64,000 bases of DNA from a virus (IMGVR_UViG_3300025459_000003:32001-96000); one strand, 5' to 3'; shown: positions 32,721-40,558, numbered from the stretch's first letter. Notes: generated by a model from the sequence alone, not told the origin. Numbers and translations: made by a program.

Positions 32721-34279
32721 ATTTCATCTACCCAATGAACTAGCGTGGTCTTTTGCCACTCCCATGCTGACAAGGGTCTGCTTTCGATTTCATCTACCCG
32801 ATGAACTAGATGGTCTTACCCATCCGGGAAGCTAAGGTTTCATCTGCCCGATGAACTGGAATGGTCTCCACATGGGCTGTCGGGCGCAGCCTTGCGGCTT
32901 CCGTTTCATCTATCCGATGAACTGGGATGGTCTCCGTCACTTTGGGGGCGACGCAGCCACTCAAACACGTTTCATCTACTCGATGAACTGAAGTGATTTC
33001 CACCAGCGTGTCACAGGCTGTTGCACGCCACGAAATTTCATCTACCCGATGAACTGGAATGACCTTTACCTTACCGCTAGCAGCATTCGTTTCATCTACC
33101 CGATGAACTAGGGTGATCTTCACCGATTGGGGAACTCTGAACTATCCACCTGGAGTTTCATCTACCCGATGAACTGAGACGGTCCCCACCGAGTGAATCC
33201 TTCGCCAACAGCCCTCAACTGTTTCATCTATTCAATGAACTGAGGTGGTTTCCATTGGAGCAGGCGCAAGCATTCGTCAAATTTCATCTATCCGATGAAC
33301 TGGAGTGGTCCGTACTGAACAGCAAGGTCATGGTTTCATCTACCCGATGAACTGAGGTGATTTTTGCTGCAGCGTGAATTCTCTGGACTTTCATCTATTC
33401 AATGAACTGGGGTGGTTTTCGCCACAGCGTGAATCCCATGGACATGGACATGGTTTCATCTACTCGATGAACTGGGGTGGTCTTATTAAATGGAGAAACG
33501 GTGCCACGAGCTTGAAGAGTTTCATCTGCCCGATGAACTGGGGTGGTCTCCACCACGATGGCGTGCTCGCATCGCCGGTACGTGGTTTCATCTACTCGAT
33601 GAACTAGGGTGGTCTTCACCGATTGAGGAACTCTGGACTATCCACCTGGAGTTTCATCTACCCGATGAACTAGGGGAGTCTTCACCGAGTCCGCTGTTCT
33701 AACCAACCGAGCTATGGTTTCACCTATCCGATGAACTAGGGTGGTCTTCACCTGCTCTTCGAGTTCTTCCCCCGGATGAGCTGTTTCACCTATTCGATGA
33801 ACTAGGGTGGTCTTCACCAATCGGCAGGCAGTTGACATTTCCCAAGGAGTTTCATCTATCCGATGAACTAGGGTGGTCTTTACCTTTACACCATTGACCA
33901 CTGGTCGATCTGCGTTTCACCTATCCGATGAACTAAGGTGGTCTTCACCTTGGCCCCGTGTATCCCGTGGGCCCTATCGGTTTCACCTATCCGATGAACT
34001 AAGGTGGTCTTCACCTGCAGGCCATCCGGCTGGAACTCGGGCGGCGTTTCACCTATCCGATGAACTAAGGTGGTCTTCACCAGGGACGTTGTCGAGGTTC
34101 TTGTTCGAGTGGTTTCACCTATCCGATGAACTAAGGTGGTCTTCACCATCCCGTGGTGTCGACGGCAATCGAGTTGTGTTTCACCTATCCGATGAACTAA
34201 GGTGGTCTTCACCGACGGTCGCCGCCGCCGTGGGCGTCGCCGTGTTTCATCTACCCGATGAACTAGGGTGGTCTTCACC
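32721..34279 (-). CRISPR. CRISPR array: 25 repeats of 36 nt (GGTGAAGACCACCYTAGTTCATCGGRTAGRTGAAAC), 24 spacers, mostly 30 nt
   Basis: 66-nt period; repeats degenerate toward 32721; 3' GAAAC end; the hairpin UUCAUC/GGUGAA needs a G-U pair, which is possible only on the minus strand. Confidence 0.95.
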
Positions 34280-34326
34280 CGATTCCTTTTAGCATAGTGT
34301 AGACGCTGGACTTAGCCTCGAACTTG

Positions 34327-34385
34327 CCTCAAAAAAACGACCATTGGAGGCCCCGCCGCAGGGCGGGACCTCCAATTTTTTGAGG
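34327..34385. terminator. long hairpin in the CRISPR leader (bidirectional terminator or ncRNA element)
   Basis: CCTCAAAAAA..TTGGAGGCCCCGCC-GCAG-GGCGGGACCTCCAA-TTTTTTGAGG. Confidence 0.65.
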
Positions 34386-34484
34386 AGGAGGACAAAGGCA
34401 CAATTATGCGGCCTTTTCAAGTTGTCAAAGAACGCTTGACCGTCCACCGCCCTTTGGCGGCTGGCCCCACTTCCGAGAGTCGTT

Positions 34485-37927: not shown

Positions 37928-37953
37928 CGAATCAGGCGACCCTTTGTCCGCCG

Positions 37954-40506
37954 TCAGGCGCTTGTGGCGGCGGCCAGATTCTTAGCTGCATTCTCCGTCT
38001 TCTTGAAGCGTGCGTGACAGTTGGGGCATTCGAGCCTGTTGTTCTTCGTGACGCCGAATGCGCCGAAGTAGCCGCAGGAGTTGCACGTCTGTACGACTTC
38101 GAGCGACGCCGCTTTCGTGACTGCGACCTCCACCCCGTGATTCCGTCCGATGTTTCTGAGGATGGCGGTGAAGTCCCCCAGGGCCAGCCGCTGCCTGTAT
38201 TCGTGGAACATTTCCGTCTTCTTGGACTTTTCCCGGCTTTCCCCGATCCCCTTGACGTCCATGTTCTTGATTACGACCTTCCCGTAACCATTGTCCGCCA
38301 GCGTCTGCATGATCAGCGTGCAGACCTTCTCGTACTCCTTCTCGCGGCGACCGGTAATGCGCCCGCTGATGAAGTTGAACAGCTCTCCGGCCTTGGCGTC
38401 CTCGGTCGCCCATTTCACGATTGCCGCCCTGGCCTCGGGATGCGCCGCCATGAGGATGTCGTCCTTGAGCAGGCTTTTGATGCCCGAGGAACGGCTTCTT
38501 TTGAGCCAGGGAGGAACATCGTCGCCCAGCTCCTCCATGAGGTGTTCTTTGAGGCGATCCTCGCAGAGGTCCCGCTCGGCCTGCATCTCCTTCTTGTACT
38601 CGAACGTGTCGGTTTCCTTCTTGCCATGCTCCCGGTTCCGCCTGCCCCACCGAGTTTCGCCCAGTTCGGCCACGAAGGGCTCGGGGTCGAAGGAGAAGAG
38701 CCTGACGCCTGTTTCCTTCTCGGTCACGATGCGCATGTTTAGCATCTTCGAGGAGGCCGCGTCCAGGACGTCCATCTTGCTTTCGAAGTCAGAGGCGCTC
38801 TCGGTCCCCCCTTCCGGCAGGCCGCTGGAAGCAAGCCACTTGCCCGTCATGCCGCTCCATTCGGCAGCCGATAGGAAACTATGTCGCAGCTCGGGGCGCT
38901 CGCCGAGGACGCCCGCGACGGCGTATGCCAGCATCGGGGGCCTCGGGTTCATGTTTGCGAAGATCGCCATCGTCCTGCCTTCGGCGGGAAGGCTCAGGGT
39001 GCCGATCTGTGCCAGGTTCTCCCTGGTGCTCCATCGCAGGTCGAGGCCTGCGGTGCTCCCCTTCACGGGCGCAGGGGCGGGCAGCTCCAGCGATAGGGAG
39101 AGCGAAATCCTCCCCGTCCTTTCCTTGAAGGAAAGCCACCATTTCTTGATGTAATGGCTTCCGGCCTTCTCCCCGAGGTTCGACGTTATTAGGACCCCCA
39201 CGGTAAAGGGCTTCAGGCCCTTTCCGCCGGAGAATGTCAGGGGACGTAGCTGCCGGTTTCTCCAGCGCTTTCCCCGGCCCTTGCCCGCCTCCTCGTGCCC
39301 GCTGTCCTGGGGGTCTACGGGAGGGCCCAGCGTCAGGCCTAGTACTTCCTGGCCCGCAAGGAAGCTTCGTATGGTGGTGGCCTCCGAGTTCCCTTGCTTG
39401 TTGCGGTTGGCAAGGGTGATGTTTCCGCTTTTCTCGTCCTCCTCGTAGCGCAGCTTCGGGAGCCCCTTCCATGGCTTCTCGTCGTTGGTTATGCGCTGCT
39501 TCAAGGTGCATTTGATGTTCTCGAACACGACGTCCCGCTCCGGCAGGGAGGAGAACATCTGCCGGACCCCGTCCAGGCTGGGGGCCTTGTTCGGCCGCTG
39601 CTTCCATCCTTCCTTGTCGTCGAACACCATCTCCCTGAGCGGATATTTCCCTGCGCGCACGTCCGGGTCGTTGCGCCAGCATTCGTCCCAGTGGTTGATC
39701 ATGCGGAAGAGCGGGGTGAAGTCGGTGGGATATTGGGCGAGGAACTTGTCAATCTCCTCCAAGAGGCCTTCGGGCACGGGATGCTCGTGCTTCTTGTCGT
39801 GCCGCAGGTTGCTGGCAACCATCCGCAAGGAGACAGCGGACAAATCCGTCTTCGCCTTTTCGCTGAGCTCGTTCTTGTAGGAGAACTTCCGGCCCTTGCC
39901 TTGACGCATGTTGAACTGGTCGAGGACCTCGACCACGTGAGTGGCGAATGTCCCGAGTTCCACGGCCGGGATGCTCTGCGTGCATGCCCGAAGGGCTTCC
40001 TTGAACATGTACGCCATGTGCTGCCTTGCCTTTCTGACCCTCGTCTTGACGCCTTCTAGCCACGCTGGAATCTCACTGGTGGCTATGCCCACATGGTGTA
40101 GGTAGATGGGCATCAGCCAACCCTTCGATATGGAGGTCGAATCTCTTTTTATCCCTGTGTTTCCGGAGATCACGAAGACGGTTTCGGGATGCTTCTTGGT
40201 CGCCACTCGCTGCTTGAAGGTCGCCAGGCGTTGGCACGCCTTTCCGTTGACCATGTAGGGCGTCTCGGAGGCATAGAGGACGATCTCGATCTGTTGCCCG
40301 GCTTCAACCATCCCGTCCATCGCCACGGGGGAGTCGAGCACGGCCCTGTTCCTCCCGCTACCGATGGACAATTTATGTGTTTTCGGGAAAAACGCAATGG
40401 TTCCCGATGAAAATTGTCTGGACTTCGACCTATCTATTCGGTCGGCATGCAGTCGGAGTTCCGTCCCGTCCCATGTCACCTTCGTCCATTCCGCCTTTTT
40501 GAGCAT
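37954..40506 (-). CDS. TnpB/Cas12-like type V effector, predicted nuclease-dead (~850 aa)
   Basis: RuvC-I AGLDLRW, RuvC-II VVIKNM (E->K), CNSC/CPNC zinc finger, RuvC-III KKTENAAKNL (D->T); GGGAGG RBS before ATG 40506; linked to the array. Confidence 0.8.
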   Translation of the reverse strand: MLKKAEWTKVTWDGTELRLHADRIDRSKSRQFSSGTIAFFPKTHKLSIGSGRNRAVLDSPVAMDGMVEAGQQIEIVLYASETPYMVNGKACQRLATFKQRVATKKHPETVFVISGNTGIKRDSTSISKGWLMPIYLHHVGIATSEIPAWLEGVKTRVRKARQHMAYMFKEALRACTQSIPAVELGTFATHVVEVLDQFNMRQGKGRKFSYKNELSEKAKTDLSAVSLRMVASNLRHDKKHEHPVPEGLLEEIDKFLAQYPTDFTPLFRMINHWDECWRNDPDVRAGKYPLREMVFDDKEGWKQRPNKAPSLDGVRQMFSSLPERDVVFENIKCTLKQRITNDEKPWKGLPKLRYEEDEKSGNITLANRNKQGNSEATTIRSFLAGQEVLGLTLGPPVDPQDSGHEEAGKGRGKRWRNRQLRPLTFSGGKGLKPFTVGVLITSNLGEKAGSHYIKKWWLSFKERTGRISLSLSLELPAPAPVKGSTAGLDLRWSTRENLAQIGTLSLPAEGRTMAIFANMNPRPPMLAYAVAGVLGERPELRHSFLSAAEWSGMTGKWLASSGLPEGGTESASDFESKMDVLDAASSKMLNMRIVTEKETGVRLFSFDPEPFVAELGETRWGRRNREHGKKETDTFEYKKEMQAERDLCEDRLKEHLMEELGDDVPPWLKRSRSSGIKSLLKDDILMAAHPEARAAIVKWATEDAKAGELFNFISGRITGRREKEYEKVCTLIMQTLADNGYGKVVIKNMDVKGIGESREKSKKTEMFHEYRQRLALGDFTAILRNIGRNHGVEVAVTKAASLEVVQTCNSCGYFGAFGVTKNNRLECPNCHARFKKTENAAKNLAAATSA

Positions 40507-40524
40507 ATGTATCCTCCCGTCCTT

Positions 40525-40558
40525 ACTATACACCGTTGGACGAGCAATTTTCGGGAAT
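40525..40558 (-). promoter_or_regulatory. promoter of the cas operon (CGAAAA-N17-TATAGT with extended TG)
   Basis: Same family as the other phage promoters; back-to-back with a + strand GGTATACT. Confidence 0.6.

Follow-up and report, generated by a model that had tools for sequence, protein, structure and literature searches.

The Locus and Its Components

The present analysis deals with a CRISPR locus found on a 64,000-nucleotide (nt) stretch of DNA, referred to here as the window, which represents bases 32001-96000 of the 157,656-bp IMG/VR virus record IMGVR_UViG_3300025459_000003. The record is phage-like in its gene content, and its completeness is put at 49% by CheckV. The locus lies on the minus strand, and combines the gene of a relative of the Cas12m effectors with that of a large partner protein, in which an ATPase is fused to a methyltransferase, the gene of a small protein, and a repeat array. 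In gene direction, the features are as follows (window positions):

37954-40506, minus strand: Cas12m-like effector, 850 amino acids (aa) from the ATG at 40506, with the open reading frame (ORF) remaining open up to a GTG at 40533
34790-37927, minus strand: partner, a superfamily 2 (SF2) ATPase and class I S-adenosylmethionine (SAM) methyltransferase, 1045 aa from a TTG
34485-34793, minus strand: small all-beta protein, 102 aa, preceded by an AGGAGG site of its own and overlapping the partner gene by ATGA
34280-34484, minus strand: leader, 205 nt, from the stop codon of the small gene to the first repeat
34376-34343, minus strand: terminator-like hairpin in the leader, with a 15-bp stem (10 G-C pairs) followed by a T run
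32721-34279, minus strand: CRISPR array, 25 repeats of 36 nt and 24 spacers, the repeat in gene direction being GGTGAAGACCACCTTAGTTCATCGGATAGGTGAAAC

The effector is likely to start at the ATG at 40506, which is preceded by GGGAGGA and yields the 850-aa form that matches the record, while use of the GTG would extend the reading frame to 37954-40533 and the protein to 859 aa. The partner has an alternative start at the ATG at 37906, which gives the 1038-aa form found on record, and the AGGAGG of the small gene lies 5 nt ahead of its ATG. Between the effector and partner genes, there is a gap of 26 nt if the TTG is taken as the start, and of 47 nt with the ATG. An earlier note, prepared by a model from the sequence alone, had described three tightly packed genes on the minus strand, separated by a gap of 26 nt and an ATGA overlap, and followed 205 nt later by a co-oriented array of 25 repeats. 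This layout was confirmed, with the gap of 26 nt applying only to the TTG start.

The same note had placed the genes under a single promoter, ahead of the array, and a promoter common to the genes and the array does not follow, given the strong hairpin that stands between them. The hairpin could mark the end of the gene transcript or the boundary of a small leader RNA, and the array probably either has its own transcription start or depends on read-through. A TTGACA is found at 34428-34423, approximately 50 nt upstream of the hairpin, with no good -10 box, and the promoter-like matches at the locus are no better than the chance level. The absence of cas1 and cas2, which had been noted for the window, extends to the whole 157,656-bp record (49% complete), where the search for Cas1 and Cas2 returned zero matches.

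The Effector and Its Family

The effector is recognized by PADLOC as Cas12u1 (E 1.8e-11) and Cas12f (E 6.7e-11), in both cases over residues 642-855, which bears out the Cas12-like nature that had been proposed for it. Cas12u1 is the former V-U1, now known as Cas12m. The NCBIfam TnpB models give weak, sub-threshold matches, and the Pfam model TNB reaches 20.7 bits, under its cut-off of 26.3. The C-terminal RuvC-like domain is split by the zinc-ribbon (TNB) domain, as in type V effectors, and both of the CxxC pairs of the zinc ribbon are present.

An exhaustive HMMER search with the effector recovered 53 representatives at E <= 0.001, including 29 below 1e-10, and the closest full-length homologues are mostly 700-850 aa long, with 27-30% identity. 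When queried alone, the window effector (P0001) found no match in the PDB, and nothing in IMG/VR. The best matches of a family profile built from 19 homologues are the solved Cas12m chains (23vw, with E 6.6e-35, 23vu, and 8hio), and the motifs DxGWR and DQDxNAAxN are common to the family and to these chains. In a quick maximum-likelihood tree of 27 long and 12 short rows, the long effectors are separated from the short homologues with a support of 99 in the Shimodaira-Hasegawa-like approximate likelihood-ratio test (SH-aLRT), and the one short homologue tested, P0049, matches Cas12m 23vw over its full length. The members of the long family have 690-860 aa (850 aa in the window), and include an extra N-terminal domain of approximately 120 aa that is absent from 23vw; the compact size of the type V-M effectors (~540-620 aa) is not found in the window effector. 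The profile and the tree indicate that the family is a long sister clade, or a deep sub-branch, of Cas12m (type V-M). The earlier suggestion of an entirely new CRISPR system would have to be narrowed to that of a branch beside Cas12m, for which binding is already established as the mode of action.

The consensus of the effector family is a D-E-D RuvC triad, which is retained by most of the relatives. In the window effector, the Asp of RuvC-I is conserved (GLDLRW), the Glu of RuvC-II is replaced by Lys (VVIKNMD), and the Asp of RuvC-III by Thr (KKTENAA), with the Lys and the Thr agreeing between two independent alignments. These replacements, in a family that mostly keeps D-E-D, support a nuclease-dead effector at the level of the sequence, in line with the inactive RuvC reported in the earlier note. 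The loss of the two residues is less telling than it looks, however, given that the Cas12m proteins bind DNA without cutting it, whether their triad is D-E-D, H-D-D, or N-D-D (PMC11013384). The catalytic site of Cas12m has been lost gradually (PMC10691335), and the processing of the precursor of the CRISPR RNA (pre-crRNA) by Cas12m is independent of RuvC, through a mechanism that is not known (PMC11013384).

The Array and the Guide RNA

The array of 25 repeats is far beyond what could be expected by chance, and 18 of its 24 spacers are 29-30 nt long. The five repeats at the gene side are identical, while the repeats degenerate towards position 32721, where the spacers shorten to 14-24 nt. This decay at the far end, together with the conserved 3' hairpin of the repeat, places the leader on the gene side and implies that the array is read in gene direction. 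An adjacent array running in the same direction as the effector gene, as would be sought in a type V locus, is present here (25 repeats, 205 nt downstream).

The repeat of the window forms two stems, of which the one on the 3' side is kept by covariation over six loci. In gene direction, the repeats of these loci have a hairpin of 6-7 bp with a loop of 5-7 nt, which ends 2 nt before the 3' end, and its stems differ in sequence (UUCAUC/GGUGAA, UUUCCC/GGGAAA, UUCACUC/GAGUGAA, UUCUCU/GGAGAA, and UGCAUC/GAUGCA). Such a hairpin would be expected as the 5' handle in the crRNA of a type V system, and it supports the direction assigned to the array. No Rfam match was found, and no solo repeats are found elsewhere in the virus record. 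A trans-activating RNA (tracrRNA) encoded in the leader was also considered, and was rejected when a reading of the leader revealed no convincing anti-repeat.

The spacers at 33125-33154 and 33621-33650 are diverged copies, alike in 27 of their 30 bases, and the 106-nt repeat-spacer-repeat units at 33089-33194 and 33585-33690 have an identity of 90%. These duplicates indicate that the array grew partly by segmental duplication, rather than by acquisition.

The Partner and the Small Protein

The partner consists of a Cys-bearing N-terminal domain (approximately residues 8-160), a helical region, an SF2 core, and a C-terminal methyltransferase. The first 160 residues or so, which include invariant cysteines, are 33% identical between distant homologues, in comparison with 23% for the remainder of the protein. 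The SF2 motifs are found in their proper order, that is, I (GIGKSRT), II (VVVDELQ), III (LMTAT), and VI (EQFARRIVR), and the Gly and Lys of Walker A, the Asp-Glu of motif II, the Thr of motif III, and the Gln and two Arg of motif VI are all invariant in an alignment of five homologues. The block PWHxA..EQ..RR..R resembles the WNP..Q..R..R block of SNF2, and the protein-language-model features of residues 300-830 have a similarity of 0.97-0.98 to phage clusters of the ResIII, SNF2-rel_dom, and Helicase_C families. The partners P0002 and P0058, and those of L002 and L011, match no Pfam helicase family at E <= 0.01, and, in the case of the L008 partner, a ResIII match with E 0.005 falls short of the cut-off. 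No nuclease domain was recognized in the partner ATPase.

The methyltransferase occupies approximately residues 890-1040, and its SAM motif, ILDIGCG, is intact. Residues 901-1037 match Methyltransf_11 with 29.6 bits (cut-off 21.2) and Methyltransf_8, which is Rrp8-like, with 29.3 bits (cut-off 27), and the domain also matches SAM methyltransferases in the PDB at E 1e-5. The (D/N/S)PP(Y/F) motif of the amino-methyltransferases was not seen in the partner. With its SF2 motifs intact and its methyltransferase above the Pfam cut-offs, the protein is, as the earlier note had stated, an SF2 ATPase fused to a SAM methyltransferase.

The structural predictions add little to this description. The AlphaFold2 models of the partner (based on a 5-row alignment) and the 102-aa protein (without an alignment) have a predicted local distance difference test (pLDDT) of 45 and 46, respectively, which is too poor for a fold search. 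The prediction of a complex between residues 10-859 of the effector and the N-terminal residues 1-150 of the partner scored 0.00, which is evidence neither for nor against an interaction. The structure neighbours of the small protein in the Atlas, at a template-modelling (TM) score of 0.5-0.6, are cereblon/Yippee, GFA, and DUF427, which can be taken as a lead only, and the small protein does not have the zinc-binding cysteines that are typical of these folds.

Linkage of the Effector, Partner, and Array

Four lineages of the partner were confirmed by sequence (L001-3, L011, L008, and L007), and in all four the partner has both an array and a member of the effector family beside it or nearby. 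These loci, and a fifth, P0046, which was judged by length and Pfam alone, are organized as follows:

L001-3, phage with Thy1 and dCMP deaminase: effector P0005, then a partner of 844-876 aa without the methyltransferase, then a 10-repeat array
L011, 130-kb contig of a phage related to that of L001-3: effector P0014, then an irregular half-repeat array, then five unrelated genes, then the partner
L008: effector from the P0016/P0009 clade, represented by its C-terminal part, followed by a partner of 815 aa and an array
L007, 141-kb contig, its phage being a distant relative of the window's phage: 1128-aa partner with the methyltransferase, then the effector as two ORFs, then an 11-repeat array
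P0046: 1050-aa Methyltransf_8/11 protein, then a 68-aa gene, then a dead effector

The L011 partner is 50% identical to that of L001-3, and the flanking synteny is similar. The C-terminus of the L007 partner is the 102-aa protein of the window, fused in frame, with an identity of 51%, and the 68-aa gene of P0046 may represent the same small beta-protein. The two effector ORFs of L007 (13455-14684 and 14518-16104) overlap and together cover the family profile, with an hhalign probability of 98% for each half. The break between them is probably a frameshift, and possibly an assembly error.

The similarities of the partners group the loci as ((L001, L011), L008) and (window, L007), which mirrors the relationships of the effectors, and the partner-bearing effectors are scattered from the base of the tree of the long family. 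The order of the genes varies among the loci, with the linkage being retained. This parallel grouping and the spread from the base of the tree fit an old association that was followed by later losses, in which the partner would be frequent, and not obligatory. Queries with the partner, either as a single sequence or as an alignment, found nothing in IMG/VR or the GTDB genomes; the search for further loci provided one locus from a metagenome scan and one homologue from word-based protein searches.

In the array of L011 (10317-10808 and 11212-11462), the conservation of the repeat is limited to its 3' hairpin half (AGTTTCTCGGAnAGAGAAAAC). The units are spaced by 35-111 nt, and the array flanks a doubtful ORF of 116 aa.

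The form of the partner also goes with the state of the effector. The partner carries the methyltransferase in the window, L007, and P0046, where the residues at RuvC-I, II, and III are D, K, and T, P, H, and Y, and K, K, and not aligned, respectively, and the second CxxC pair of the L007 effector is replaced as well. The partner is a helicase only in the case of P0005 (L001) and P0014 (L011), where the triad is D, E, and D, and in L008, where it is D, E, and T. The methyltransferase-type partner is found only with RuvC-dead effectors, then, in three of three loci, with the P0046 partner assigned from its length and Pfam matches. The small beta-protein accompanies the methyltransferase, as a separate gene in the window and as a fusion in L007. 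These counts are low, and the phages behind the three loci may be related to one another. A glycosyltransferase and a DNA methyltransferase are encoded in the window, and at P0046 glycosyltransferases and methyltransferases are found near the CRISPR module, a hint of kinship between the two phages.

Persistence of the Locus, Spacer Targets, and Neighbouring Genes

Four sequencing runs from soil, peat, and wetland, with dates from 2014 to 2020, have contigs in which the whole 8-kb locus (window 32400-40700), including the array, is letter-identical, at depths of up to about 800. In all, 20 sequencing runs contain the locus almost completely, and none of those listed is an RNA run. These runs may all stem from one campaign of sampling, and the record itself may derive from some of them. 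They point to an abundant and persistent phage with a static array, and no spacer turnover is seen between them, a finding consistent with the lack of Cas1 and Cas2 in the available half of the genome. A decayed relic was also considered as an explanation of the locus, and is ruled out by the three intact ORFs, the identical leader-side repeats, and the unchanged locus across the runs.

A comparison of the spacers with 50,697 records of cultured phages returned nothing significant (all matches at E >= 2), two spacer patterns and the repeat core had no exact match in IMG/VR, and no cross-targeting was found between the arrays and the compared loci. The spacer at 33950-33979 provides the sole self match, with 22 of 23 bases in the phage's own collagen-like (Gly-X-Y) gene at genome position 156596, and a weaker match in the fibre gene within the window (about 8407); a target in the fibre gene of a related phage fits this pattern. 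The spacer at 33687-33716 resembles the 5' half of a tRNA, from the D-arm to the anticodon stem, and is similar, although not identical, to the phage's tRNA-Lys(CUU), at genome positions 135412-135487. These two spacers weakly favour rival phages as the targets.

The other genes of the window that are relevant here are:

8029-10041: collagen-like tail fibre gene, with tandem Gly-X-Y repeats (TRF, 8314-8511 and 9352-9433) and matches to tail fibre PHROGs
20413-21831: glycosyltransferase (PHROG 2644, E 1e-45)
27330-29078: DNA methyltransferase (PHROG 67, E 1e-28)

The record also contains a set of tRNA genes that is large for a phage, with 26 recognized by ARAGORN, most of them in two clusters outside the window (genome positions 111539-112767 and 134687-139104), and most with an encoded CCA end.

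Interpretation and Alternative Explanations

On balance, this is probably an intact CRISPR locus of a large peat or wetland phage, which dispenses with adaptation genes, and in which a long relative of Cas12m works with an ATP-driven partner step. In this system, the effector, loaded with a crRNA whose 5' handle would be the 3' hairpin of the repeat, is predicted to find the matching double-stranded DNA and bind it without cutting. The dedicated SF2 (SNF2/ResIII-like) ATPase, apparently co-inherited since near the base of the family, would act at or from the bound site, most likely as a translocase that strengthens or spreads the interference, for example through the displacement of polymerases or the remodelling of the target. 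The proposal of a DNA translocase is based on the analogy with CasDinG and Cas3, and on the SNF2/ResIII-like motifs. In the RuvC-dead sub-branch, the methyltransferase and the small beta-domain may modify the target nucleic acid or an associated molecule. The likely use of the system would be competition with related phages or mobile elements, or the silencing of host genes.

A number of observations weigh against this interpretation. The members of a nested clade, that of P0008 (L004, L013-15), have arrays and no partner within 10 kb, which indicates that the effector can work alone. On the short contigs of P0009, P0019, and P0025, no partner is directly adjacent, and, in L011, the effector and the partner are parted by five unrelated genes. 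The sample of loci is small. The phages of the window and L007 are related, with that of P0046 probably belonging to the same group, and the phages of L001-3 and L011 are likewise related to each other. No Pfam helicase model reaches its threshold on any of the partners, and the methyltransferase is closest to the small-molecule and RNA types (Methyltransf_11 and Rrp8-like), rather than to the known DNA methyltransferases. Within the locus itself, a terminator-like hairpin parts the genes from the array, and no protospacer was found for any spacer, hence no target type or protospacer-adjacent motif (PAM).

The proposals of the earlier note with regard to the partner were borne out in part. The recurrent co-occurrence of the effector, partner, and array holds in the four sequence-confirmed partner lineages, but not in the P0008 clade. 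Of the helicase-methyltransferase that had been suggested as the system's partner, the ATPase recurs in the family, whereas the methyltransferase is confined to one sub-branch. The note had also accepted that its interpretation would fail if homologous effectors were usually found without the partner, and the ATPase proved to be frequent and old, yet absent near the P0008 clade.

The effector may, alternatively, be a Cas12m-type roadblock that acts alone, with the partner and the small protein serving an unrelated phage function, such as modification, anti-restriction, or replication. Phages often carry helicase and methyltransferase genes, and other methyltransferases are present in the window; the P0008 clade retains the effector and array without the partner, and in L011 the effector and partner are 5 kb apart. 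This explanation is nevertheless quite improbable, given that the partner stands by an effector and an array in four of four lineages, with varied gene orders, in at least two groups of phages, that the divergence of the partner parallels that of the effector, and that the genes of the window are packed, with an ATGA overlap. It is somewhat less improbable, while still unlikely, that the partner acts on RNA, as an RNA helicase or ribonucleoprotein remodeller, with the methyltransferase modifying the crRNA, the target transcript, or the rRNA or tRNA of the host, in the service of guide biogenesis, guide protection, or interference at the RNA level. The best matches of the methyltransferase, to Methyltransf_8 (the family of the rRNA methyltransferase Rrp8) and Methyltransf_11, would be consistent with such a role, as would the many RNA helicases within SF2, the unexplained mechanism by which Cas12m processes its pre-crRNA (PMC11013384), and the spacer that resembles the 5' half of a tRNA. 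The motifs LMTATP and PWHxA..EQ..RR..R, and the neighbours in the language model, point instead to DNA translocases of the ResIII/SNF2 type, and three of the partner lineages have no methyltransferase at all.

The locus might also function as a regulator, rather than a weapon, which, in the course of an infection, would repress particular genes of the host or of the phage itself, in the manner of TldR or a dead Cas regulator. The constancy of the array across samples from six years, the failure to find adaptation genes, and the duplication and decay of the old spacers would all suit a regulator, although 24 different spacers are many for such a role, and the only match to the phage's own genome is the partial one, of 22 of 23 bases, in the collagen-like repeat gene. 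Regulation is not a likely function. In a bolder version of the preferred interpretation, the dead effector would be a programmable targeting module, from which the SNF2-like motor carries the methyltransferase along the target to write methyl marks, by which the DNA of a competing phage or the host, or its RNA, would be silenced or disabled, with the small beta-domain as a nucleic-acid reader or clamp, and this guided methylation is considered a rather slim prospect. The dead effector could, finally, be an anti-CRISPR decoy that soaks up the crRNAs of the host, for which there is a precedent in the dead Cas9 with an SNF2 helicase found in phages (PMC10910872; PMC12669027). In contrast with the Cas9 case, the present effector has its own co-directional array of 25 repeats, whose hairpin co-varies with the lineage of the effector, and there is no known host Cas12m system, which makes a decoy highly improbable.

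Significance and Comparison with Known Systems

The systems of the Cas12m type are thought to interfere solely by sitting on DNA, and an ATP-driven partner that is passed on with an entire branch of these effectors would, if confirmed, equip a class 2 system with a second step, of an active kind. The counterparts of such a partner would be Cas3 (type I) and CasDinG (type IV), and its presence would represent another independent gain of a helicase by a nuclease-free CRISPR effector. The sub-branch with the fused methyltransferase raises natural RNA-guided methylation as a testable possibility, and, if this were true, it would amount to a natural RNA-guided epigenetic writer. In practical terms, the pair could yield a programmable DNA binder of compact size, equipped with a motor or modifier of its own. 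Another aspect illustrated by the locus is how large environmental phages may arm themselves against rivals or hosts without adaptation genes.

The literature, for which the coverage of journals was partial, contained no description of a Cas12m-like effector with an SNF2/ResIII-like ATPase or a methyltransferase, in agreement with the earlier note, which knew of no described type V subtype with such a partner. The nearest precedents for the partnership are Cas12m-Cas3 and the dCas9-SNF2 pair of phages. The locus would apparently represent an undescribed, helicase-assisted, phage-borne branch beside type V-M.

The closest relative is type V-M itself (Cas12m; PDB 23vw, 23vu, 8hio/8hhl, and 8pm4; PMC11013384), which has the same RuvC/zinc-ribbon core and the motifs DxGWR and DQDxNAAxN. 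The systems also have in common the repeat hairpin, the lack of adaptation genes, carriage on mobile elements, and an eroding triad, and the present one would, like V-M, use a guide composed of the crRNA only and act by binding. The V-M systems carried by plasmids and prophages bring about silencing through binding (PMC11656645; PMC11013384). The effectors described here differ in having 700-860 aa, versus about 540-620 aa, with an extra N-terminal domain of ~120 aa and a separate clade (support 99), and many of the members have an SF2 ATPase partner, which has not been reported for canonical V-M. Phage-borne Cas12m is represented by the myxophage MV-1 (bioRxiv 10.64898/2026.09.14.751636) and hits in landfill viromes (PMC12607003), which likewise have an array without cas1, cas2, or cas4. 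The MvCas12m protein, however, has 610 aa and an intact D-E-D triad, with no helicase or methyltransferase partner reported, and the viral Cas12m-like genes of the landfill viromes were likewise described without partners.

The coupling of a type V effector to a helicase is also seen in the candidate Cas12m-Cas3 and Cas12a2-UvrD/TPR-DUF3800 systems (Altae-Tran et al. 2023, PMC10910872), for which an extra interference step was proposed. The helicase of the present locus is neither a Cas3, given that it has no HD nuclease, nor a UvrD, and has its own N-terminal domain and, in one branch, a fused methyltransferase. The II-C2 system of phages (PMC10910872; PMC12669027) resembles it in being phage-encoded, with a nuclease-impaired, RuvC-dead Cas9 beside an ATPase of the SF2/SNF2 type, the two helicases being likened by type alone. 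Unlike the locus described here, with its type V effector and a long array of its own, the II-C2 system is without a CRISPR array, and has been interpreted as an anti-CRISPR decoy.

Type IV-A, with its helicase CasDinG, also has a nuclease-free effector on mobile elements, depends on a helicase in interference or silencing, often has no adaptation genes, and takes part in the competition between elements. It differs in its multi-subunit effector, of class 1, and in the DinG family of its SF2 helicase, and the lone link in sequence between the partner and type IV-A is a sub-threshold PADLOC match (E 0.008). Helicases have joined CRISPR systems repeatedly, as Cas3, CasDinG, RecD, Cas12m-Cas3, Cas12a2-UvrD, and the dCas9-SNF2 pair of phages (PMC10910872; PMC12669027), and the ATPase of this phage locus would be one more case.

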